Part shown: positions 2,873-27,780 of the stretch, piece after piece | How the letters are laid out: each line of letters starts with the position of its first letter | How positions within the stretch are numbered: the first letter of the stretch is position 1 | Origin: Escherichia coli | GTDB lineage: Bacteria > Pseudomonadota > Gammaproteobacteria > Enterobacterales > Enterobacteriaceae | Assembly: GCF_003334785.1 (NCBI RefSeq) | Contig: NZ_QOWV01000002.1 | DNA: 64,000 nt | Strand: one strand, 5' to 3' | The notes under the pieces: generated by a model | Database searches by the model: none | The model's input: the letters and a program-made list of their open reading frames with translations, nothing else | What the model was told of the DNA's origin: nothing | Made by a program: the position numbers and the translations under genes

Positions 2873-4564
2873 ATGAAAACGCTGCTGATTATTGACGCTA
2901 ATCTCGGTCAGGCACGCGCCTATATGGCGAAGACCCTGCTGGGCGCGGCGGCGCGAAAAGCAAAACTGGAAATCATCGACAATCCGAACGACGCTGAAAT
3001 GGCGATTGTTCTCGGTGATTCCATCCCGAACGACAGCGCGCTGAACGGTAAAAATGTCTGGCTGGGCGATATTTCCCGGGCAGTTGCGCACCCTGAGCTG
3101 TTCCTGAGTGAAGCCAAAGGCCATGCGAAACCTTACACTGCGCCGGTCGCTGCGACAGCACCAGTTGCCGCCAGCGGTCCGAAACGCGTAGTTGCGGTGA
3201 CTGCTTGCCCGACTGGCGTAGCACACACCTTTATGGCGGCTGAAGCCATTGAAACCGAAGCGAAAAAACGTGGCTGGTGGGTGAAAGTTGAAACCCGTGG
3301 TTCTGTTGGCGCGGGTAATGCAATCACTCCCGAAGAAGTCGCAGCAGCGGATCTGGTGATTGTGGCGGCAGATATCGAAGTGGATCTGGCGAAATTTGCT
3401 GGTAAACCGATGTATCGTACCTCTACCGGTCTGGCGCTGAAGAAAACCGCGCAGGAACTGGATAAAGCGGTTGCTGAAGCAACGCCGTATGAACCGGCGG
3501 GCAAAGCTCAAACGGCGACCACTGAAAGTAAGAAAGAGAGTGCAGGCGCATACCGTCACTTGCTGACGGGCGTTTCTTACATGCTGCCGATGGTCGTTGC
3601 AGGTGGTCTGTGTATCGCGCTTTCTTTTGCTTTTGGTATCGAAGCGTTTAAAGAGCCGGGTACGTTGGCTGCGGCGCTGATGCAGATTGGTGGTGGTTCA
3701 GCCTTTGCGCTGATGGTGCCGGTACTGGCAGGTTATATTGCCTTTTCCATTGCCGATCGTCCGGGCCTCACTCCGGGTCTGATTGGCGGTATGCTGGCGG
3801 TCAGCACCGGTTCTGGCTTCATTGGTGGTATTATTGCGGGCTTCCTGGCTGGTTACATTGCGAAGTTAATCAGTACGCAATTGAAACTGCCACAGAGTAT
3901 GGAGGCGCTGAAACCGATCCTGATCATTCCGCTAATTTCCAGTCTGGTGGTCGGTCTGGCGATGATCTACCTGATCGGTAAACCAGTTGCTGGCATTCTC
4001 GAAGGGCTGACTCACTGGCTGCAGACCATGGGGACTGCGAATGCGGTTCTGCTGGGGGCGATCCTCGGTGGCATGATGTGTACTGACATGGGCGGTCCGG
4101 TAAACAAAGCAGCGTACGCATTCGGTGTGGGTCTGCTGAGTACTCAAACCTATGGCCCGATGGCGGCGATTATGGCGGCAGGTATGGTGCCACCGCTGGC
4201 AATGGGTCTGGCAACAATGGTGGCGCGTCGCAAATTCGACAAAGCGCAGCAGGAAGGTGGCAAAGCCGCTCTGGTATTGGGACTGTGCTTCATTTCGGAA
4301 GGTGCAATTCCGTTTGCTGCTCGTGATCCGATGCGTGTGCTGCCGTGCTGTATCGTGGGTGGGGCGCTGACTGGCGCAATCTCAATGGCGATTGGTGCGA
4401 AACTGATGGCACCGCACGGTGGTCTGTTTGTTCTGCTGATCCCTGGCGCTATTACGCCGGTATTGGGTTACCTGGTAGCAATTATTGCCGGTACGCTGGT
4501 GGCGGGTTTGGCCTATGCCTTCCTGAAACGTCCGGAAGTGGACGCAGTAGCGAAAGCAGCGTAA
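2873..4564 (+). CDS. fruA: Fructose PTS enzyme IIB'BC
   Basis: 563-aa ORF, duplicated IIB-like N-terminus followed by polytopic IIC membrane domain; RBS AGGAGAGG upstream. Confidence 0.95.
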   Translation: MKTLLIIDANLGQARAYMAKTLLGAAARKAKLEIIDNPNDAEMAIVLGDSIPNDSALNGKNVWLGDISRAVAHPELFLSEAKGHAKPYTAPVAATAPVAASGPKRVVAVTACPTGVAHTFMAAEAIETEAKKRGWWVKVETRGSVGAGNAITPEEVAAADLVIVAADIEVDLAKFAGKPMYRTSTGLALKKTAQELDKAVAEATPYEPAGKAQTATTESKKESAGAYRHLLTGVSYMLPMVVAGGLCIALSFAFGIEAFKEPGTLAAALMQIGGGSAFALMVPVLAGYIAFSIADRPGLTPGLIGGMLAVSTGSGFIGGIIAGFLAGYIAKLISTQLKLPQSMEALKPILIIPLISSLVVGLAMIYLIGKPVAGILEGLTHWLQTMGTANAVLLGAILGGMMCTDMGGPVNKAAYAFGVGLLSTQTYGPMAAIMAAGMVPPLAMGLATMVARRKFDKAQQEGGKAALVLGLCFISEGAIPFAARDPMRVLPCCIVGGALTGAISMAIGAKLMAPHGGLFVLLIPGAITPVLGYLVAIIAGTLVAGLAYAFLKRPEVDAVAKAA

Positions 4565-4720
4565 TAAAAGGTGTGTTACAGGGCAGAAATTTCCTGTCCT
4601 GTAACATTTGATGAGCGCAAAGAGAATGACCGGTTTGTGAATGTAATTTTATGAATTTAAATGGTTTTATCTTTCAGTAGAAACTTCAAACGTTCATCAA
4701 ACACTCAGGTTATTTCCTCA

Positions 4721-4748
4721 AGGGCAGATTATTTTCTGCCCTTTTTTA
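4721..4748 (+). terminator. Rho-independent terminator downstream of fruA
   Basis: GGGCAGA-loop-TCTGCCC stem followed by TTTTTTATT. Confidence 0.7.
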
Positions 4749-4986
4749 TTGTTCTGTTCTGTGCATCCCGTCACAAATTCCTCGCTTTTGTAATTCAGGC
4801 ATTTAATCGCATTTTGTGAGCCTGCTCAAATCTGCCCATTTTGCCTCTCTGGCGGTAATTTACTTTACGTAAAACATGCATACTATGAGCACATGTTTAA
4901 ATATGAACACATGTTTAAACCGTCTTTGCAGTATCTATATTCTTGTGGATTGACAGGGTTGGTAATTTTTTACCAGAGGACGTGCT

Positions 4987-5928
4987 ATGCGCGAAAAGGA
5001 TTATGTCGTAATTATAGGTTCGGCGAATATTGATGTCGCCGGATATTCACATGAATCATTAAATTATGCGGATTCAAATCCAGGTAAAATAAAATTTACG
5101 CCTGGTGGAGTAGGGCGCAATATTGCACAAAACCTGGCGTTGCTGGGTAACAAAGCCTGGCTACTGAGCGCCGTAGGCAGTGATTTTTATGGTCAATCGC
5201 TGCTAACGCAAACCAATCAATCTGGCGTTTATGTCGATAAATGCCTGATTGTGCCGGGAGAAAATACGTCGAGTTATTTATCATTACTCGATAATACCGG
5301 TGAAATGCTGGTTGCTATAAATGACATGAATATTAGCAACGCTATTACAGCTGAATATCTCGCACAGCACGGTGAATTTATTCAGAGGGCAAAGGTCATT
5401 GTCGCGGACTGTAATATCAGTGAAGAGGCACTGGCATGGATTCTGGATAATGCCGCCAACGTACCCGTATTTGTCGATCCGGTTTCGGCATGGAAATGTG
5501 TCAAAGTGCGCGACCGTCTAAATCAGATCCACACTCTCAAGCCAAACCGCCTTGAAGCGGAAACCCTGAGTGGGATTGCGCTGTCAGGGCGTGAAGATGT
5601 GGCAAAAGTTGCTGCCTGGTTCCATCAACATGGCCTGAACCGACTGGTATTGAGCATGGGCGGCGACGGCGTTTATTACAGCGATATCAGCGGTGAAAGT
5701 GGCTGGTCTGCGCCGATCAAAACCAATGTTATTAATGTTACCGGAGCGGGCGATGCCATGATGGCGGGACTTGCTTCGTGTTGGGTAGACGGAATGCCGT
5801 TTGCCGAATCTGTTCGTTTCGCACAGGGATGTTCGTCAATGGCGCTCTCCTGTGAATACACCAATAACCCCGATTTATCGATTGCCAACGTTATATCGTT
5901 AGTGGAGAACGCAGAATGTCTGAATTAA
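4987..5928 (+). CDS. psuK: Pseudouridine kinase (pfkB family)
   Basis: 313-aa ORF MREKDYVVIIGSANIDV...; pfkB motifs; overlaps psuG by 13 nt. Confidence 0.9.
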   Translation: MREKDYVVIIGSANIDVAGYSHESLNYADSNPGKIKFTPGGVGRNIAQNLALLGNKAWLLSAVGSDFYGQSLLTQTNQSGVYVDKCLIVPGENTSSYLSLLDNTGEMLVAINDMNISNAITAEYLAQHGEFIQRAKVIVADCNISEEALAWILDNAANVPVFVDPVSAWKCVKVRDRLNQIHTLKPNRLEAETLSGIALSGREDVAKVAAWFHQHGLNRLVLSMGGDGVYYSDISGESGWSAPIKTNVINVTGAGDAMMAGLASCWVDGMPFAESVRFAQGCSSMALSCEYTNNPDLSIANVISLVENAECLN

Positions 5929-6854
5929 AAATTTCCCCTGAATTATTACAAATTTCCCCGGAAGTGCAGGACGCTTTAAAAAACAAAAAACCGGTTGTGG
6001 CGCTGGAATCGACCATTATTTCTCACGGGATGCCGTTCCCACAAAATGCCCAGACCGCAATTGAAGTTGAAGAAACTATTCGTAAACAGGGCGCTGTACC
6101 TGCCACGATCGCCATTATTGGCGGCGTGATGAAAGTGGGGTTAAGCAAAGAAGAAATTGAATTACTGGGTCGTGAAGGGCATAACGTGACCAAAGTTAGT
6201 CGTCGCGATTTACCTTTTGTTGTTGCCGCCGGAAAAAATGGCGCAACCACTGTGGCTTCAACGATGATTATTGCGGCGCTTGCCGGAATTAAAGTATTTG
6301 CCACCGGGGGAATTGGTGGTGTGCATCGCGGGGCGGAACATACCTTCGATATTTCTGCCGATTTGCAAGAACTGGCAAATACTAATGTCACCGTTGTTTG
6401 TGCCGGGGCGAAATCTATTCTCGATTTAGGATTAACCACTGAGTATTTAGAAACCTTCGGTGTGCCGTTAATTGGCTATCAGACTAAAGCGCTGCCTGCG
6501 TTTTTCTGCCGCACCAGCCCGTTTGACGTCAGCATTCGTCTCGACAGCGCCAGCGAAATTGCCCGTGCAATGGCGGTGAAATGGCAAAGCGGTCTGAACG
6601 GTGGCCTCGTGGTAGCGAACCCGATCCCGGAACAGTTTGCTATGCCGGAACACACTATCAATGCGGCGATCGATCAGGCGGTAGCTGAAGCTGAAGCTCA
6701 GGGAGTCATTGGTAAAGAAAGTACGCCATTCCTGCTGGCGCGCGTTGCTGAACTGACCGGCGGTGACAGCCTGAAATCCAACATCCAGCTGGTGTTCAAC
6801 AACGCCATTCTGGCGAGCGAAATTGCCAAAGAATATCAGCGTCTCGCGGGTTAA
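5916..6854 (+). CDS. psuG: Pseudouridine-5'-phosphate glycosidase
   Basis: 312-aa ORF; operon partner of psuK (yeiN/yeiC arrangement). Confidence 0.9.
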   Translation: MSELKISPELLQISPEVQDALKNKKPVVALESTIISHGMPFPQNAQTAIEVEETIRKQGAVPATIAIIGGVMKVGLSKEEIELLGREGHNVTKVSRRDLPFVVAAGKNGATTVASTMIIAALAGIKVFATGGIGGVHRGAEHTFDISADLQELANTNVTVVCAGAKSILDLGLTTEYLETFGVPLIGYQTKALPAFFCRTSPFDVSIRLDSASEIARAMAVKWQSGLNGGLVVANPIPEQFAMPEHTINAAIDQAVAEAEAQGVIGKESTPFLLARVAELTGGDSLKSNIQLVFNNAILASEIAKEYQRLAG

Positions 6855-6947
6855 TTTCTGACGGGCAGAAAGCCGTCGCCCGTACTCATCAAGCATACCA
6901 AAACCTGGCGCTGACGCCGGGTTTACCGGCATGAAGGGAAAATCATT

Positions 6948-8198
6948 ATGGATATAATGAGAAGTGTTGTGGGGATGGTGGTGTTACTGGCAATAGCATT
7001 TCTGTTGTCAGTGAATAAAAAGAGCATCAGTTTGCGCACGGTTGGAGCCGCACTGCTGCTGCAAATCGCTATTGGTGGCATCATGCTCTACTTCCCACCG
7101 GGAAAATGGGCAGTAGAACAGGCGGCATTAGGCGTTCATAAAGTGATGTCTTACAGTGATGCCGGTAGCGCCTTCATTTTTGGTTCGCTGGTTGGGCCGA
7201 AAATGGATGTCCTGTTTGACGGTGCGGGTTTTATCTTCGCCTTTCGCGTACTTCCGGCGATTATTTTCGTTACTGCGCTCATCAGTCTGCTGTACTACAT
7301 TGGCGTGATGGGGCTGCTGATTCGCATCCTTGGCAGCATTTTCCAGAAAGCCCTCAACATCAGCAAAATCGAATCTTTTGTTGCGGTTACTACTATTTTC
7401 CTCGGGCAAAATGAGATCCCGGCGATCGTTAAACCGTTTATCGATCGCATGAATCGCAACGAGTTGTTTACCGCAATTTGTAGCGGGATGGCGTCCATTG
7501 CTGGTTCGATGATGATTGGTTATGCCGGAATGGGCGTACCAATTGACTACCTGTTAGCGGCATCGCTGATGGCGATCCCTGGCGGGATTTTGTTTGCACG
7601 TATTCTTAGCCCGGCAACCGAGCCTTCGCAGGTCACATTTGAAAATCTGTCGTTCAGCGAAACGCCGCCAAAAAGCTTTATCGAAGCGGCGGCGAGCGGT
7701 GCGATGACCGGGCTAAAAATCGCCGCTGGTGTGGCGACGGTGGTAATGGCGTTTGTCGCAATTATTGCGCTGATCAACGGCATTATCGGCGGAATTGGCG
7801 GCTGGTTTGGTTTCGCCAATGCCTCTCTGGAAAGTATTTTTGGCTATGTGCTGGCACCGCTGGCGTGGATCATGGGTGTGGACTGGAGTGATGCCAATCT
7901 TGCGGGTAGCCTGATTGGGCAGAAACTGGCGATTAACGAATTCGTCGCTTACCTGAGTTTCTCCCCATACCTGCAAACGGGCGGCACGCTGGAAGTGAAA
8001 ACCATTGCGATTATCTCCTTTGCGCTTTGTGGTTTTGCTAACTTTGGTTCTATCGGTGTTGTCGTTGGCGCATTTTCGGCTATTTCGCCAAAACGCGCGC
8101 CGGAAATCGCCCAGCTTGGTTTACGGGCGCTGGCAGCAGCAACGCTTTCCAACCTGATGAGTGCGACTATTGCCGGGTTCTTTATTGGTCTGGCGTAA
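6948..8198 (+). CDS. psuT: Concentrative nucleoside transporter (NupC family), putative pseudouridine transporter
   Basis: 416-aa polytopic membrane ORF; close paralog of the ORF at 10138-11388. Confidence 0.9.
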   Translation: MDIMRSVVGMVVLLAIAFLLSVNKKSISLRTVGAALLLQIAIGGIMLYFPPGKWAVEQAALGVHKVMSYSDAGSAFIFGSLVGPKMDVLFDGAGFIFAFRVLPAIIFVTALISLLYYIGVMGLLIRILGSIFQKALNISKIESFVAVTTIFLGQNEIPAIVKPFIDRMNRNELFTAICSGMASIAGSMMIGYAGMGVPIDYLLAASLMAIPGGILFARILSPATEPSQVTFENLSFSETPPKSFIEAAASGAMTGLKIAAGVATVVMAFVAIIALINGIIGGIGGWFGFANASLESIFGYVLAPLAWIMGVDWSDANLAGSLIGQKLAINEFVAYLSFSPYLQTGGTLEVKTIAIISFALCGFANFGSIGVVVGAFSAISPKRAPEIAQLGLRALAAATLSNLMSATIAGFFIGLA

Positions 8199-8207
8199 TG
8201 CTCGATT

Positions 8208-8250
8208 TGTAGACCGGATAAAACGTATTAAGCGTTGCATCCGGCAATCG
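8208..8250. repeat. REP (repetitive extragenic palindrome) element
   Basis: TGTAGACCGGATAAAACG...GCATCCGGCAA matches REP consensus family (GCCGGATAAGGCG.../GCATCCGGC). Confidence 0.8.
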
Positions 8251-8268
8251 CGCTATTGAAAATAATTT

Positions 8269-8928
8269 TTACTGCATCATCCCGGAGAATTTATTCTCCG
8301 GGTCCATCTCCAGCGCCAGTCCTGACAACTGCTTTCTGTTTTTAATGAGATATCCTTTCTTGCTTTTAATTAATAAACCGTCGTGAATGAACTGCGCGAG
8401 AACATATAAAAGATGTCGATAAGAAACGCCTAAATACTCTGCCGCTTGCGTATGCTTTTCGTGATAAAGATCACCTTCCTGCGAGAGTAATATAAATGCT
8501 GCCAGGCGATTCACTAACGGAAATGATTGATTCTGAGTTAAAGAAACAATATTACGATAATTTTTATGACTTAAGGTGACGCAGAGTTTTCGTAAAAATA
8601 GCGTGTCGTTTAATAACAGCGGACGGTAATGTTTCATAGGGAGCGCAAGGCACCAACACTCTTCAATAGCCTGCACCGCACGCGGTTCATGGTCTTTATC
8701 GATTAACTCAATCTCGCCAATAAAACAGGGGGCGGCAAAGAAATCGATCAGCGACACGCGACCATTAGCTAGCGTGGCGTAAAGCCTGGCGCGGCCTCGC
8801 GTCAGGTAAAACAGCCAGGACGGCTGTTGCCCTTCCTGCACAATGTAGTCACGCGCTAAAAAATGAAACAGCCGCGTATCGGCTGAAACATCCGTTAAAA
8901 AGCAATCCTTAAACGCGGATTCACTCAT
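8269..8928 (-). CDS. yeiL: CRP/FNR-family transcriptional regulator
   Basis: ORF with cNMP-binding-like N-terminus and C-terminal HTH; chose ATG at 8928 (MSESAFKD...), since the longer frame to 8967 begins with GTG. Confidence 0.85.
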
Positions 8929-9096
8929 CAATTGCTGCTTAAGATCATTATTGTGGATTTCTTTCACGATGTTTATCCGCTATGAGATTTCTCATATTTA
9001 GCATACGTACGCTGTTGTTAAGATTCAATCATCGGCCCGGTCGAATTTTCTTTGCTGTAGAAAAAATAACGCAACTGGAAACAGAGGAAATAAACA

Positions 9097-10038
9097 ATGG
9101 AAAAGAGAAAAATTATTCTGGATTGTGATCCGGGTCATGATGATGCTATTGCTATAATGATGGCGGCGAAACATCCGGCAATAGATTTATTAGGCATCAC
9201 TATTGTAGCGGGTAATCAGACGCTTGATAAAACATTAATTAATGGCCTGAATGTTTGCCAGAAACTGGAGATTAATGTTCCGGTTTATGCGGGGATGCCG
9301 CAGCCCATTATGCGTCAACAAATCGTTGCCGATAATATTCACGGTGAAACCGGACTGGATGGCCCGGTATTCGAGCCGCTGACCCGCCAGGCAGAAAGCA
9401 CTCATGCGGTGAAATATATCATTGATACCCTGATGGCAAGCGATGGCGATATCACTCTGGTGCCGGTTGGTCCGCTTTCAAATATCGCGGTGGCAATGCG
9501 TATGCAACCCGCGATCCTGCCCAAAATCCGTGAAATTGTGCTAATGGGCGGCGCTTACGGTACAGGCAACTTCACGCCATCTGCCGAGTTCAACATCTTT
9601 GCCGACCCGGAAGCCGCACGCGTAGTGTTCACCTCCGGCGTTCCATTAGTGATGATGGGCCTCGATCTCACCAACCAGACCGTTTGCACCCCGGACGTGA
9701 TTGCTCGGATGGAAAGGGCAGGCGGCCCCGCCGGAGAGCTGTTCAGCGACATCATGAACTTCACTCTCAAAACGCAGTTCGAAAACTACGGCCTTGCTGG
9801 CGGCCCGGTGCACGACGCCACCTGCATCGGTTATCTGATTAACCCTGATGGCATTAAAACCCAGGAGATGTACGTCGAAGTGGACGTCAACAGTGGCCCT
9901 TGCTATGGGCGTACCGTCTGCGACGAGCTGGGCGTTCTTGGCAAGCCCGCCAATACCAAAGTCGGCATCACTATTGATACAGACTGGTTCTGGGGATTAG
10001 TCGAAGAGTGCGTGCGCGGCTACATCAAAACCCATTAA
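9097..10038 (+). CDS. rihB: Pyrimidine-specific ribonucleoside hydrolase
   Basis: 313-aa ORF with N-terminal DCDPGHDDA nucleoside hydrolase signature. Confidence 0.93.
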
Positions 10039-10137
10039 GTGTTGATAACAAGCCGGGCCGGTATCGCAAGATGCAGGCCTGGCTATTTCTGATGGGCAGA
10101 AAGCCGTCGCCCAATATGACATGAAGAGATAATCACT

Positions 10138-11388
10138 ATGGATGTCATGAGAAGTGTTCTGGGAATGGTGGTATTGCTGACGATTGCGTTTTTACTGTCA
10201 GTAAACAAGAAGAAGATCAGCCTGCGTACCGTTGGCGCGGCGTTAGTGTTACAGGTCGTGATTGGCGGCATTATGCTTTGGTTACCGCCAGGGCGTTGGG
10301 TCGCTGAAAAAGTCGCTTTTGGCGTGCATAAAGTGATGGCGTACAGCGACGCGGGTAGCGCATTTATCTTCGGTTCTCTGGTCGGACCGAAAATGGATAC
10401 CTTATTTGATGGTGCAGGATTTATCTTTGGTTTCAGGGTGTTACCGGCAATTATCTTCGTCACCGCGCTGGTGAGTATTCTCTACTACATCGGTGTGATG
10501 GGGATTTTAATTCGAATTCTCGGCGGTATCTTCCAGAAAGCATTAAATATCAGCAAGATCGAGTCATTCGTCGCGGTCACCACCATTTTCCTCGGGCAAA
10601 ACGAAATTCCGGCAATCGTCAAACCCTTTATCGATCGTCTGAATCGCAATGAATTATTTACAGCGATTTGTAGTGGCATGGCCTCGATTGCTGGTTCGAC
10701 AATGATTGGTTACGCCGCACTGGGCGTGCCTGTGGAATATCTGCTGGCGGCATCATTAATGGCGATCCCTGGCGGGATCTTGTTTGCCCGCCTGTTAAGC
10801 CCGGCAACGGAATCTTCGCAGGTTTCCTTTAATAACCTCTCTTTCACCGAAACACCGCCAAAAAGCATTATTGAAGCCGCTGCGACAGGGGCAATGACCG
10901 GGCTGAAAATCGCCGCAGGTGTGGCAACAGTGGTGATGGCATTTGTTGCAATAATTGCGTTGATTAACGGTATTATCGGCGGCGTTGGTGGCTGGTTTGG
11001 TTTTGAACATGCCTCGCTGGAGTCCATTTTAGGTTACCTGCTGGCTCCACTGGCGTGGGTGATGGGTGTGGACTGGAGTGATGCGAATCTTGCCGGGAGT
11101 TTGATTGGACAGAAACTGGCAATAAATGAATTTGTCGCTTATCTCAATTTCTCACCCTATCTGCAAACGGCTGGCACTCTCGATGCTAAAACTGTGGCGA
11201 TTATTTCCTTCGCGTTGTGCGGTTTCGCTAACTTTGGTTCTATCGGGGTGGTGGTGGGGGCGTTTTCTGCGGTTGCGCCACACCGTGCGCCGGAAATCGC
11301 CCAGCTTGGTTTACGGGCGCTGGCGGCGGCGACGCTTTCCAACTTGATGAGTGCGACCATTGCCGGGTTCTTTATTGGTTTAGCTTGA
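10138..11388 (+). CDS. nupX: Nucleoside permease (NupC family)
   Basis: 416-aa membrane ORF, roughly 85 percent identical by eye to psuT (6948-8198). Confidence 0.9.
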   Translation: MDVMRSVLGMVVLLTIAFLLSVNKKKISLRTVGAALVLQVVIGGIMLWLPPGRWVAEKVAFGVHKVMAYSDAGSAFIFGSLVGPKMDTLFDGAGFIFGFRVLPAIIFVTALVSILYYIGVMGILIRILGGIFQKALNISKIESFVAVTTIFLGQNEIPAIVKPFIDRLNRNELFTAICSGMASIAGSTMIGYAALGVPVEYLLAASLMAIPGGILFARLLSPATESSQVSFNNLSFTETPPKSIIEAAATGAMTGLKIAAGVATVVMAFVAIIALINGIIGGVGGWFGFEHASLESILGYLLAPLAWVMGVDWSDANLAGSLIGQKLAINEFVAYLNFSPYLQTAGTLDAKTVAIISFALCGFANFGSIGVVVGAFSAVAPHRAPEIAQLGLRALAAATLSNLMSATIAGFFIGLA

Positions 11389-11396
11389 GTGTCATT

Positions 11397-11490
11397 GCCT
11401 GATGCGCAAGCTTATCAGGCCTACATTTACTTGCTGAAATTGCCTGATTTGTAGGCCGGATAAGACGCGTTAAGCGTCGCATCCGGCAAC
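11397..11490. repeat. Two REP-type palindromic units (BIME-like)
   Basis: GCCTGATGCGCAAGCTTATCAGGCCTACA and TGTAGGCCGGATAAGACGCGTTAAGCGTCGCATCCGGCAAC. Confidence 0.8.
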
Positions 11491-11494
11491 ATTG

Positions 11495-12583
11495 TTACAC
11501 CATTGGCACTAATGAAAGCGCGTTATCGGCAGACAGGGTAGGGTTGTTTAAGCTGCCGCTGGCGCGCGAAATTGCCGCGCAGGCTACCGCAAAACGGGCG
11601 CTGTCGCGGAAACTGTATCCTTCAAGAAAGCTATATACCAGGCCCGCCATAAAACCATCGTCAGCACCAAAACTGTCTACTGTCGTATGCGCTGGCGCGG
11701 TCAGCAAAAATTGTTCTCCATCCTTTTCGCTGCAATAAACTGACTCATCGGGCAAATAAACAAACAGTTGCTGAACACCTTGCTGATGCAATGCATTCAC
11801 TGCGGTATTACGGTCAGCATCGCTGGTGATCGCCTGTCCCCATAAAATTTCCAGCTCCGGTAAAGTGGGTTTCAGGGTGTGAATATGCACCAGCCAGTGT
11901 TTGATTTTGCCCGCTTTGAATTCTGAAACGGTATCGACAAACACCGGGATTTCATCAGCGAGGGTAAAGACCCATTCCAGCGCCTCGGCTGTCAGGTTGC
12001 AATCAGCCAGTACCACGCCCGCATGACGAAGTAAATCGCGCGACCCGTTCAGTAGTTGCGGTGTCAACTGTTCCAGCAGATGGGTATCGTTAATCGCCAG
12101 CACGGTTTGATCGTCTCGATTGGCAATTGCCAGATACGTCGATGTGCTTTGACCATGCAAACGAACGCAGCCGGAGACATTCACGCCGGCACGGCGCGTT
12201 TCTTCCAGGAGCATTTCGCCATAAAAGTCATCGCCAATCACTGAAAGCAAATGGACGTCACGGCCTAACAGCGCCAGATTGTGGGCGATGTTGCGTCCCA
12301 CGCCGCCCGCTGAGCAATGAATTGTACCGGGATGAGAAGCCGATTGCGGGTAACGGATATCCGCCATCCCGCGAATATCCATATTGATTGTCCCCACCAC
12401 TACGCAGTATTCCTGCTCGGTGAGAATGTAACCTTTGCCTTTAATCCGGCCTTTGCGCATTAAATCCATAATATGCGCCGCAACGCGCGAACGGCTGATT
12501 TGCAGCATGTCCGCAATTTCGTTCTGCTGAATCAGCGGGTTACGCCGTAAAATTGCAAGGATCTCCTTTTCCCGGTTATTCAT
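11495..12583 (-). CDS. yeiI: Putative sugar/nucleoside kinase with N-terminal HTH domain (pfkB family)
   Basis: 362-aa ORF; N-terminal HTH (MNNREKEILAILRRNPLIQQNEIADML...) fused to a pfkB kinase domain paralogous to psuK (GGVGRNIAHNLALLG). Confidence 0.88.
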   Translation of the reverse strand: MNNREKEILAILRRNPLIQQNEIADMLQISRSRVAAHIMDLMRKGRIKGKGYILTEQEYCVVVGTINMDIRGMADIRYPQSASHPGTIHCSAGGVGRNIAHNLALLGRDVHLLSVIGDDFYGEMLLEETRRAGVNVSGCVRLHGQSTSTYLAIANRDDQTVLAINDTHLLEQLTPQLLNGSRDLLRHAGVVLADCNLTAEALEWVFTLADEIPVFVDTVSEFKAGKIKHWLVHIHTLKPTLPELEILWGQAITSDADRNTAVNALHQQGVQQLFVYLPDESVYCSEKDGEQFLLTAPAHTTVDSFGADDGFMAGLVYSFLEGYSFRDSARFAVACAAISRASGSLNNPTLSADNALSLVPMV

Positions 12584-12585
12584 CT

Positions 12586-13443
12586 TCAGGCTACCGCTTT
12601 TTCAGTTTGTTGCGCTTTCAGCCAGGCGATCTCTTCTGCCCAGATATCCGGGTTGATGGTTTCGAGGATCAGCGGAATGCCGTCGAAACGGTCGTCCTGC
12701 ATGATCCAGCGGAACGCATCATGACCGATATTGCCTTCACCGAGGCTATGATGGCGGTCAACGCGGCTGCCAAAGGTGCTTTTCGCATCGTTAAGGTGCA
12801 TCCCGCGCAGATACTTAAAGCCGACAGTACGGGCAAAATCCGCGAATGTTTTCTCGCATTCGGCTGGAGTACGCAAATCATACCCGGCAGCGAAAGCATG
12901 GCAGGTATCAATGCAGACGCCGACGCGGGATTTATCTTCCACGCCGTCGATAATCGCCGCGAGATGTTCGAATTTAAACCCTAAGTTACTGCCCTGACCG
13001 GCGGTGTTTTCTATCACCGCTGTCACACCTTGAGTTTTATCCAGCGCAATGTTGATGGATTCGGCAATACGCGCAAGGCAATCCTCTTCTGAAATCTGCA
13101 TCAGATGGCTGCCAGGGTGGAAGTTGAGCAAAGAAAGCCCCAGCTGTTCGCAACGCTGCATTTCATCTATAAAGGCATCGCGCGATTTTTCCAGAGCTTC
13201 AGTGACCGGATGTCCGAGGTTAATCAGATAACTGTCGTGGGGAAGAATTTGCGCCGATGTGTAGTGATATTTTTCACAGGCGGCTTTGAATTCATCGATG
13301 GTTTGCGTCGTGAGCGGTGCGGCACGCCACTGACGTTGGTTTTTGGTGAACAAGGCAAACGCGGTTGCGTCGATTTCGGCGGCGCGAATTGCGGCATTTG
13401 CCAGACCGCCAGCAGCACTAACGTGCGCTCCAATGTATTTCAT
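12586..13443 (-). CDS. nfo: Endonuclease IV (AP endonuclease)
   Basis: 285-aa [17 protein letters not shown]...; 2-nt gap to yeiI. Confidence 0.95.
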
Positions 13444-13516
13444 GCGAGGACTCCTGTTAAACCCGCTGGAGGAAAACGGTAATGATAGCGGGTTAACAGG
13501 AGCAAGATGTAGTGGT

Positions 13517-14566
13517 TTATGCGATGACGCTTTGAATCACATAGTTAATCGCACCACCACCAACAATCAGCCAGGCAAACAGTACCAGTGCCATCAGCAG
13601 AGGTTTCGCCCCAGCTTTTTTCAGCGCGCTGACGTGAGTGGTCAGACCCAGCGCCGCCATCGCCATTGCCAGCAGGAAGGTATCCAGCGTTACCAGCATG
13701 TTCACCACGCTCTGCGGTAACAGGTGGAACGAGTTAAAGATGGCAACTACGATGAACAAGATGGCAAACCACGGAATAGTGATTTTGCTTTTCTCGCCGC
13801 TGTTCGCCCCAGACAGCTGTTTAACACGCGCCGCCAGCAGGATGAGGAACGGAGCCAGCATCATCACGCGCAGCATTTTGGAAATAACTGCTGCGTTTTC
13901 CGCATCCGGGCTGATGGCATGACCTGCCGCCACCACCTGCGCCACTTCGTGCACAGTAGAACCAATGTAGATACCGAAAGTTTCCGGACTAAACCATTGA
14001 GACATCAGCGGATATATCGCCGGGTAGAGGAAAATCGCGACGGTCCCGAAGATAACAACGGTTGCAACAGCCACGGTTACTTTACTGGCTTCCGCTTTCA
14101 CTACCGGCTCAGTCGCCAGTACCGCGGCAGCACCACAGATACTGCTACCGGCACCGATCAACCAGCTGGTGTGCTTATCCAGACCAAACACTTTCTGCCC
14201 CAGGAAGCAAGCCAGCAGGAAGGTACTGGACAGCGTCAACACGTCAATGATGATCCCACTGATACCGACATCGGCAATTTGCGAGAACGTCAGACGGAAG
14301 CCATAAAGAATGATACCCAGACGTAATAAATATTGCTTGGCAAACAGCACACCACCGTCACAGCTTTTCCAGATGTGCGGATAGATGGTGTTGCCTAAAA
14401 CCATCCCCAACAAGATTGCGAGGGTGAGGGCACTAAACCCGGCACCCGCAACCGCGGGAATGGAACCACCCCACAGGGCGACCCCGGTGATAACTGCACT
14501 CAGGGCTAACCCCGGAATAAAATGCCACAGTGTACGATGTTGTTTCTGTAAGGTGATATTCGTCAT
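13517..14566 (-). CDS. yeiH: UPF0324 family inner membrane protein
   Basis: 349-aa polytopic hydrophobic ORF. Confidence 0.88.
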
Positions 14567-27597: not shown

Positions 27598-27780
27598 TTG
27601 TAGGCCGGATAAGGCGTTCACGCCGCATCCGGCAACAGGAGCCAAATGCCGGATGCAACGCTGGCGCGTTTTATCCGGCCTACAATAAGCTCAACATACT
27701 GATTTGTATGGTTTTGTAGGCCGGATAAGGCGTTCAAGCCGCATCCGGCGACAGGAACCAAATGCCGGATGCGTCTCTGG
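27598..27780. repeat. BIME: cluster of about four REP units in alternating orientation
   Basis: Repeated TGTAGGCCGGATAAGGCGTTCA(C/A)GCCGCATCCGGC units between convergent mglC and preA. Confidence 0.85.

Follow-up and report, generated by a model that had tools for sequence, protein, structure and literature searches.

A predicted sense-strand hairpin conserved in the leaders of the paralogous nucleoside transporter genes psuT and nupX of Escherichia coli and its relatives

Two neighboring nucleoside-utilization gene sets of Escherichia coli, one containing psuK, psuG, and psuT and the other rihB and nupX, carry almost the same 28-nt sequence upstream of their paralogous transporter genes, psuT and nupX, which raises the question of whether this sequence is a leftover of duplication, a dispersed repeat, or an element with a function of its own, acting either as DNA or as RNA. 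The question is addressed here for a 64,000-nt stretch of E. coli DNA (RefSeq assembly GCF_003334785.1, contig NZ_QOWV01000002.1; hereafter the window), in which the two sets occupy positions 4987–12583. Comparative sequence analysis identifies within this sequence an unannotated, conserved sense-strand RNA structure belonging to the transporter leader, a predicted hairpin termed hp1, which is of a familiar general kind and probably has a role in transporter expression at the mRNA level. The window is K-12-like and differs from MG1655 at only 3 positions (6574, 8353, and 11889) over the 13 kb compared, so that the RefSeq MG1655 gene names are valid for it and it represents a relative of K-12 rather than MG1655 itself; a window position equals 2264283 minus the MG1655 coordinate. 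The two motif copies and the genes that border them are as follows.

6854–6881, plus strand: 28-nt motif, copy 1, ATTTCTGACGGGCAGAAAGCCGTCGCCC (exact match)
10085–10112, plus strand: 28-nt motif, copy 2, as copy 1 but with C replaced by T at position 9
5916–6854, plus strand: psuG, pseudouridine-5′-phosphate glycosidase (stop codon TAA at 6852–6854; orthologues with PF04227)
6948–8198, plus strand: psuT, transporter of the concentrative nucleoside transporter (CNT, NupC-type) family, 416 aa (open reading frame [ORF], RefSeq)
9097–10038, plus strand: rihB, pyrimidine ribonucleoside hydrolase (ORF, RefSeq)
10138–11388, plus strand: nupX, CNT transporter, 416 aa, paralogue of psuT (ORF, RefSeq)

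The two motif copies reported in a preliminary description of the locus are present at the positions given there with a single mismatch (27/28 identical), and no third copy was found in the 64-kb window at up to 3 mismatches (shuffled sequences gave 0 matches). The first base of copy 1 is the last base of the psuG stop codon, and its end lies 66 nt 5′ of the psuT ATG (6948); copy 2 lies 46 nt past the rihB stop codon (10038) and is separated from the nupX ATG (10138) by 25 nt. Of 5426 complete E. coli genomes, 5425 carry the 28-mer, and the median genome has it in two places; this species-wide presence in two copies means that it is not a dispersed repeat.

The transporters themselves are paralogous, as had been proposed, with 88% protein identity over 416 aa each and no gaps, and both are CNT (NupC-type) nucleoside transporters by their domain content, since PF01773, PF07670, and PF07662 (Nucleos_tra2_N, Gate, and Nucleos_tra2_C) are found in all close PsuT/NupX homologues. 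The genes are 78.8% identical in nucleotides overall, 52.5% at third codon positions, and 47% at four-fold degenerate sites; because the neutral sites are thus near saturation, a 27/28 match in non-coding DNA is far above neutral expectation, and the shared upstream element is by this measure under selection and not a neutral leftover. A pairwise alignment of the two genes with their flanks, as suggested in the preliminary description, places the start of homology precisely on the first base of the motif and its end at the stop codons. The 3′ ends of psuG and rihB are unrelated, a 41-nt stretch is found in psuT only, and psuT/nupX homology resumes at CATGAAG(G/A)GA...ATG. All psuT genes form one clade nested among the nupX genes in a neighbor-joining tree, where the E. 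coli paralogues are not sisters; the duplication is therefore ancient rather than recent. The homology would begin at the motif because hp1 predates the transporter duplication: the hairpin would already have stood before the ancestral transporter gene when it duplicated, and both lineages would have kept it across the Enterobacteriaceae.

The structure was examined in 23 transporter leaders of the PsuT/NupX clade from about 12 enterobacterial genera (Escherichia, Citrobacter, Kluyvera, Klebsiella, Leclercia/Enterobacter, Buttiauxella, Superficieibacter, Entomohabitans, Dryocola, and others). In the window it takes the following form.

6861–6883, plus strand: hp1 of the psuT leader, with ACGGGC (6861–6866), the loop AGAAAGCCGUC (6867–6877), and GCCCGU (6878–6883) (minimum free energy −11.1 kcal/mol; RNAalifold, covariation, and covariance model)
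10093–10113, plus strand: hp1 of the nupX leader, UGGGC - AGAAAGCCGUC - GCCCA (folds, RNAalifold, and covariation)

Twenty of the 23 leaders contain hp1, including those of genomes with psuT only or nupX only, and the consensus is a 6-bp stem, (A/G)(C/U)GGGC...GCCC(G/A)(U/C), enclosing an 11-nt loop, (A/C)G-NNN-GC-N-GU-(C/U). The folding energy of hp1 is −8 to −11 kcal/mol. RNAalifold predicted the 6-bp stem unprompted from an ungapped 39-nt alignment. The covariation check across Enterobacteriaceae that the preliminary description had called for was carried out by pair counting on 19 sequences, and three stem pairs covary: pair 10–30 is CG in 12, UA in 5, UG in 2, and unpaired in 0; pair 11–29 is GC in 17 and AU in 2; and pair 9–31 is AU in 10, GC in 3, GU in 1, and unpaired in 5. 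The stem is paired in 86.8% of cells (32–54% with slid partners), and its covariation score of 0.256 was reached in 0 of 500 shuffles (0.170 ± 0.020). The E. coli copies themselves illustrate the pattern, with a U-A closing pair in nupX and its C-G counterpart in psuT. Conservation beyond neutral expectation and compensatory base-pair changes, as expected of a structured leader, are therefore both found. All wobble pairs in hp1 are G·U on the plus strand, where the other strand would read A·C, which favors a sense RNA over DNA symmetry or an antisense transcript.

Matches to a covariance model built from the 19 sequences cover 6853–6891 (46.9 bits) for psuT and 10084–10122 (41 bits) for nupX; these are the two in the window, and strong matches occur solely in PsuT/NupX-clade leaders. 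The model was also run on 70 loci of more remote CNT homologues and gave no convincing hp1 there. A match in locus L066 was set aside as an unrelated palindrome, and the metagenome pattern RGGCAGNNNGCGGTCGCCY gave chance matches in high-GC soil DNA (0 of 80 fetched loci with a PsuT homologue; median GC 65%). An Rfam search of 4000–14000 (cmscan, E ≤ 10) returned chance-level matches only, none of them on hp1 itself. The hairpin begins 6 nt past the psuG stop in the window, 6–10 nt across psuT leaders, and segregates with the downstream transporter gene, not with the upstream gene. Within the loop, positions G16, G20, C21, G23, and U24 are invariant or nearly so, and adjacent positions vary freely. 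In the Leclercia-type nupX leaders L081 and L085 the stem ACGGG/CCCGU is preserved, but its loop has been exchanged for an unrelated sequence that lengthens the helix (to 12 bp and −19.5 kcal/mol in L085), and in Entomohabitans psuT the hp1 position is taken by a perfect 15-bp hairpin of unrelated sequence. From these three loop-replaced leaders it follows that a stable hairpin is what persists, together with specific loop bases in most lineages.

Loss of the motif from orthologous loci had been named beforehand as the outcome that would count against it, and the motif is conserved there. Its 28-nt boundaries do not carry over: they apply to E. coli alone, for the left 8 nt (ATTTCTGA) are unconserved in other genera and, in nupX, also form the U-tract of a terminator-like hairpin behind rihB, and in psuT the constrained region reaches beyond the 28-mer to the full 93-nt spacer. 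The short hairpin first proposed for the motif, GACGG/CCGTC, pairs in E. coli but is not a conserved structure elsewhere (72.6% of cells paired vs. 72.9% in shuffles, a value reached by 384 of 500; pair 11–22 is broken in 13 of 19 sequences). Another hairpin, TTTCTG/CAGAAA, is paired in 60.5% of cells, which is weak support, and a structural switch involving it would be speculative.

The near-perfect identity of the 28 nt in E. coli, in leaders 3.2 kb apart, most plausibly reflects a short gene-conversion patch or parallel change. The hp1 loops of E. coli psuT and nupX are identical at 11/11 positions, Kluyvera paralogues differ at 4/11, and orthologous loops differ at 1–2 positions, so that the extra similarity in E. 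coli is local; extended conversion was rejected, as the coding sequences of psuT and nupX in E. coli are 77% identical over their first 90 nt, directly after the start codon, and no tract into the coding sequence was seen. The same loop comparison, and the E. coli-specific identity of the 8-nt left flank, which is consistent with a short conversion patch, could be taken to mean that hp1 has no function of its own and is a by-product of conversion between paralogues, or that it is a generic spacer hairpin which has survived by chance. We give this reading only a slim chance, since conversion explains neither the conservation in single-copy genomes (Citrobacter, E. albertii, Leclercia, and Buttiauxella) nor the compensatory changes, no conversion tract extends into coding sequence, and the hairpin persists while synonymous sites are saturated.

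A DNA-level role would make the inverted repeat an operator at which a dimeric factor, be it YeiL, YeiI, or some other protein, binds to regulate an internal transporter promoter. The sequence is indeed palindromic, as TTTCTG-N5-CAGAAA and as CGGGC-N11-GCCCG, and the regulator genes yeiL and yeiI adjoin the loci. However, hp1 is present in loci without yeiL (Citrobacter, K. michiganensis, and E. albertii; L002–L005, L088, and L091) and in loci without yeiI (Leclercia, Buttiauxella, L083, L084, L089, and L090; L081–L084, L089, and L090), so that neither regulator is a dedicated partner of hp1; as a YeiL or YeiI site it thus failed the test of site-regulator co-occurrence. The half-sites change and yet stay complementary, in part through G·U pairs, which in DNA would break the symmetry. 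Half-sites whose centres lie 17 bp apart are unusual for helix-turn-helix (HTH) dimers, and TTTCTG/CAGAAA is conserved only weakly. A DeoR/CytR-type or CRP/FNR-type operator also seems a poor fit in orientation and spacing. No sigma-70-like promoter was found by scanning near either motif copy, and an internal promoter was rejected on this ground and because candidate hexamers are unconserved. An operator is therefore very unlikely, the least probable of the readings considered, and with no promoter-like site at the transporters both genes are probably transcribed by read-through, from psuKG or from rihB. The position of hp1 between co-oriented genes, the lack of a promoter-like site, and the sense-strand G·U pairs fit an element of a transcribed leader.

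The remaining leader features are listed below.

6884–6900, plus strand: single-stranded conserved linker (..AUCAAGCAUACCAAAA) between hp1 and a second hairpin, hp2 (11-leader alignment)
6901–6924, plus strand: hp2, AAACCUGGCG-CUGA-CGCCGGGUUU, then ACCGG (−15.9 kcal/mol; folds and alignment)
6931–6950, plus strand: Shine-Dalgarno region GAAGGGA and psuT start codon, common to nupX (alignment, leaders)
10051–10084, plus strand: hairpin after rihB (−26 kcal/mol), with the U-rich tail UAUUUCU at 10085–10091

The 93-nt psuG-psuT spacer folds as hp1 plus hp2 and is 79–85% identical between E. coli and Citrobacter or Kluyvera, compared with 43–49% at psuT four-fold sites. Across psuT leaders the linker reads AUAUCA-N-ACAUACC-AAAA, and hp2, with an NNNN loop and 3–4 U in total 3′ of its stem, is terminator-like. 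The window nupX leader lacks hp2, as do most other nupX leaders, some of which have a reduced linker only; linker and hp2 are both kept in K. spallanzanii nupX, and the comparison of leaders including this one indicates an ancestral order of hp1, linker, hp2, and Shine-Dalgarno sequence. As far as the alignments go, hp1 is the part of this leader that survives in both the psuT and the nupX lineages. The loss of hp2 in nupX lineages is bordered by short CTGG/CCGG repeats. The K-12-type nupX leader (CCCAATATGACATGAAG, window 10113–10137) lacks 12 nt that are present in the leader of another E. coli lineage, L001 (CCCATAACGGGATCAGACCTGACATGAAG, ∼7165–7201), and the deletion takes away the outermost hp1 pair. 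The rihB hairpin resembles an intrinsic terminator when taken with its UAUUUCU tail, the stretch with which motif copy 2 begins. In E. coli ETEC4071 (L214), IS200C is inserted between the U-tract of this hairpin and hp1, at the equivalent of window ∼10089/10090 (junction ...GGAGGATATTTATT|CTGATGGGC), and hp1 stays attached to nupX. Serratia and Hafnia orthologues (protein 73% identical) have a different long hairpin in the same spacer; this unrelated conserved hairpin, an 11-bp stem of CCTGAAAGGTG and CACCTTTCAGG around a loop of ∼20 nt, stands 5′ of the transporter in Serratia, Hafnia, and Klebsiella sp. BIGb0407 (L006 3875–3935; L007–L009), in L006 within the psuG-transporter spacer.

An RNA-level regulatory or processing role, already suspected in the preliminary description, remains the best reading of these observations. 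With confidence only a little above the halfway mark, we take hp1 to be a sense-strand stem-loop in the mRNA leaders of the PsuT/NupX clade that acts in cis on transporter expression. As a stable structure at the enzyme/transporter boundary, it would, together with a neighboring terminator-like hairpin (in psuT hp2, which follows it, and in nupX the rihB hairpin, which precedes it), set the amount or survival of the transporter message relative to the enzyme message. It might do so by terminating part of the transcription, through processing and protection of the ends, or by insulating the ribosome-binding site. The fixed bases of the loop suggest that the loop is also read, either by a factor that is generally available or in a tertiary contact.

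Several points weigh against this cis-acting role. No U run follows hp1, the next bases being GUACUCAU in psuT and AAUAUGAC in nupX, so that it is not itself a terminator, and anywhere between 25 and about 66 nt separate it from the start codon, a variation that speaks against a direct translational operator. A plain structural role leaves the fixed loop bases unexplained, whereas a loop-reading factor leaves the three loop-replaced leaders unexplained. The covariation derives from just 19 related sequences and three pairs, and hp2 is almost invariant in sequence, with no compensatory change and a U run of 3–4 nt. Finally, the supplements searched from Term-seq, Rho, SMRT-Cappable-seq, dRNA-seq, and RIL-seq studies list nothing for either spacer, in laboratory media in which the psu and rihB-nupX genes are poorly expressed. 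The only entries nearby are three Rho-termination regions (Adams et al., 2021; PMC7815308, supplementary file 2), at MG1655 2259533(−) after fruA (window ∼4750, plus strand), 2255991(−) after the psuT repetitive extragenic palindrome (REP) and antisense to yeiL (window ∼8292, plus strand), and 2253044(+) antisense to nupX (window ∼11239, minus strand).

Known systems offer partial parallels for such a cis-acting stem-loop. Intercistronic stem-loops set differential expression within operons in the malE-malF REP stabilizer, in papB-papA processing, and in the Rhodobacter puf hairpins. Like these, hp1 is a conserved, stable sense-strand hairpin that separates one cistron from a following cistron for a membrane protein, beside terminator-like structures and without its own promoter; unlike them, it has two copies per genome (REPs have many) and a partly fixed loop, segregates with the downstream transporter gene, and is known here from sequence alone. 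Similarly, REPs and bacterial interspersed mosaic elements (BIMEs) are GC-rich imperfect palindromes in E. coli spacers, and true REPs lie 3′ of both transporters, but hp1 departs from the REP consensus and is restricted to two leaders. Membership of hp1 in the REP/BIME class was rejected, with no REP consensus match, a median of two genomic places, and a REP pattern that matches other sites. In comparison with intrinsic terminators and the pyrE and pyrBI attenuators, hp2 (UUU/UUUU) and the rihB hairpin (UAUUUCU) resemble weak terminators placed just past a stop codon in pyrimidine-salvage operons, and psuT hp1, 6–10 nt past the psuG stop, is within reach of the terminating ribosome. GC-rich stem-loops as in terminators are formed by hp1, hp2, and the rihB hairpin, but hp1 has no U-tract and a strict terminator scan flags none of the three; in contrast to the pyr attenuators there is no U-rich pause region and no leader peptide, and the supplements searched contain no 3′ ends. 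An upstream mini-ORF at CATGAAG was rejected because its ATG is unconserved (ATC in L084 and L086; missing in L011 and L085).

The fixed loop bases and the wider constraint also lend something to a ligand- or factor-responsive riboregulator, in which hp1 and the linker would form a small sensor that binds a nucleoside-related metabolite, a widely conserved RNA-binding protein, or a small RNA (sRNA) and would control the terminator-like hp2 or the fate of the mRNA, coupling transporter expression to nucleoside/pyrimidine status. Five loop positions are (nearly) invariant beside freely varying ones, the entire psuT leader is constrained well past synonymous sites, and the succession of hairpin, single-stranded stretch, terminator-like hairpin, and ribosome-binding site is laid out as in small attenuating riboswitches and protein-dependent attenuators. 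Lambda boxB/nut, the BglG ribonucleic antiterminator (RAT), and preQ1-I likewise combine a short leader hairpin and conserved loop bases, with the terminator-like hairpin next in psuT; hp1 differs from them in giving no sequence or model match and no supported pseudoknot and, from the BglG RAT and its terminator, in that hp1 and hp2 do not overlap. A preQ1-I-like loop-linker pseudoknot was rejected, since inspection of the leaders revealed no consistent complementarity and the E. coli loops have no GGU to pair with ACC. With no Rfam family match, no covarying loop-linker pseudoknot on inspection, most nupX leaders keeping hp1 without linker and hp2, a loop wholly replaced in three leaders, and a single 23-nt hairpin that is very small for an aptamer, such a riboregulator is unlikely, if the most probable of the alternatives.

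The architecture of the psuG-psuT spacer, a 5′ hairpin followed by an A/U-rich conserved linker and a GC stem with U3–4, would also fit an sRNA of ∼75 nt derived from the 3′ untranslated region or spacer, comparable to SroC from gltI-gltJ, with the nupX hp1 as a remnant. The spacer is strongly conserved, and a chance-level Rfam match to isrJ, an Hfq-binding sRNA, covers exactly 6851–6925 (18.9 bits against a threshold of 37; E = 9.4, not significant). Nevertheless, the supplements searched list the spacer neither as a 3′ end nor as a RIL-seq partner (the genes were barely expressed there), its U run is short for Hfq binding, it has no known target, and the retention of hp1 in nupX leaders that lack hp2 is left unexplained; we regard an sRNA as quite unlikely. 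The bolder proposal that the psuT leader (hp1-linker-hp2) and its reduced nupX version constitute a previously unrecognized riboregulator, or the source of an sRNA, in E. coli K-12 is rather improbable; in its riboregulator version, a nucleoside/pyrimidine signal or a conserved RNA-binding factor would switch expression of the CNT transporters.

The wider locus contains the following further features.

2873–4564, plus strand: fruA (ORF list and RefSeq MG1655 annotation)
4987–5928, plus strand: psuK, pseudouridine kinase of the PfkB family (ORF and mapped RefSeq MG1655 annotation)
8269–8928, minus strand: yeiL, CRP/FNR-family regulator, divergent from rihB (ORF, RefSeq, and synteny)
11495–12583, minus strand: yeiI, protein with HTH plus PfkB-like domains (ORF, RefSeq, and synteny)
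beyond yeiI, minus strand: nfo and yeiH (RefSeq and ORF list)
8214–8244, plus strand: REP element 3′ of psuT (REP pattern; sub-threshold in Rfam)
11456–11486, plus strand: REP element 3′ of nupX (REP pattern; sub-threshold in Rfam)

The REP elements reported after both transporters were thus located; they come from a 6-copy family in the window, with sub-threshold naRNA4/REP matches in Rfam, and the same family forms a BIME-like cluster of three REPs on alternating strands at 27605–27748 and a single REP at 44672–44699. The grouping of yeiI with rihB and nupX, in contrast, has to be given up. In a survey of 18 loci, yeiI, which lies on the opposite strand, accompanies psuKGT: psuK-psuG-psuT-yeiI co-occur without exception (Citrobacter, E. 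albertii, K. michiganensis, and L091), and yeiI is missing wherever rihB-nupX stands alone. The true second module is yeiL-rihB-nupX, whose members co-occur without exception, including at non-syntenic sites (L084, L089, and L090). The order of the modules is variable where both are present (L085 vs. E. coli), and yeiL-rihB-nupX behaves as a portable cassette, lying between psuT and yeiI in E. coli, Kluyvera, and Entomohabitans, 5′ of psuKGT in L085, alone beside fruA in Leclercia, Buttiauxella, and L083, and at unrelated sites in K. spallanzanii and H11S18/Dryocola; it is not present in E. albertii and Citrobacter.

The likeness of the two kinases holds, PsuK and YeiI being 39% identical across the PfkB domain, and YeiI orthologues have HTH_24 plus PfkB domains. 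All seven YeiI orthologues examined (window 11495–12583, minus strand; L002, L003, L086, L087, L088, and L091) read F-G-A-D-D where PsuK and a Serratia HTH-kinase (L006 1774–2892), the first gene of its own kinase-psuG-psuT operon, have the canonical PfkB T-G-A-G-D. This motif, and the strict co-occurrence with psuKGT, suggest that YeiI is a degenerate kinase that senses or regulates pseudouridine catabolism and does not serve as a second catabolic kinase.

To our knowledge, psuKGT is the only known bacterial route of pseudouridine salvage, and the literature searched contained no description of the regulation of psuKGT or rihB-nupX. The fruA-psuK spacer, which is the psuK promoter region, is reported to be a recurrent target of selection during adaptation of E. 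coli to the mouse gut (PMC9509342). In the window this spacer (4565–4986) contains the fruA terminator at 4720–4743 and a promoter-like site at 4914–4941. The corrected modules, with yeiI belonging to psuKGT and yeiL to rihB-nupX, redirect functional work on YeiI and NupX. The hairpin hp1 adds an unannotated, predicted structured RNA to the best-studied bacterial genome, and a conserved, covarying RNA element at the enzyme/transporter boundary would offer an easily mutated handle on the balance between uptake and catabolism.

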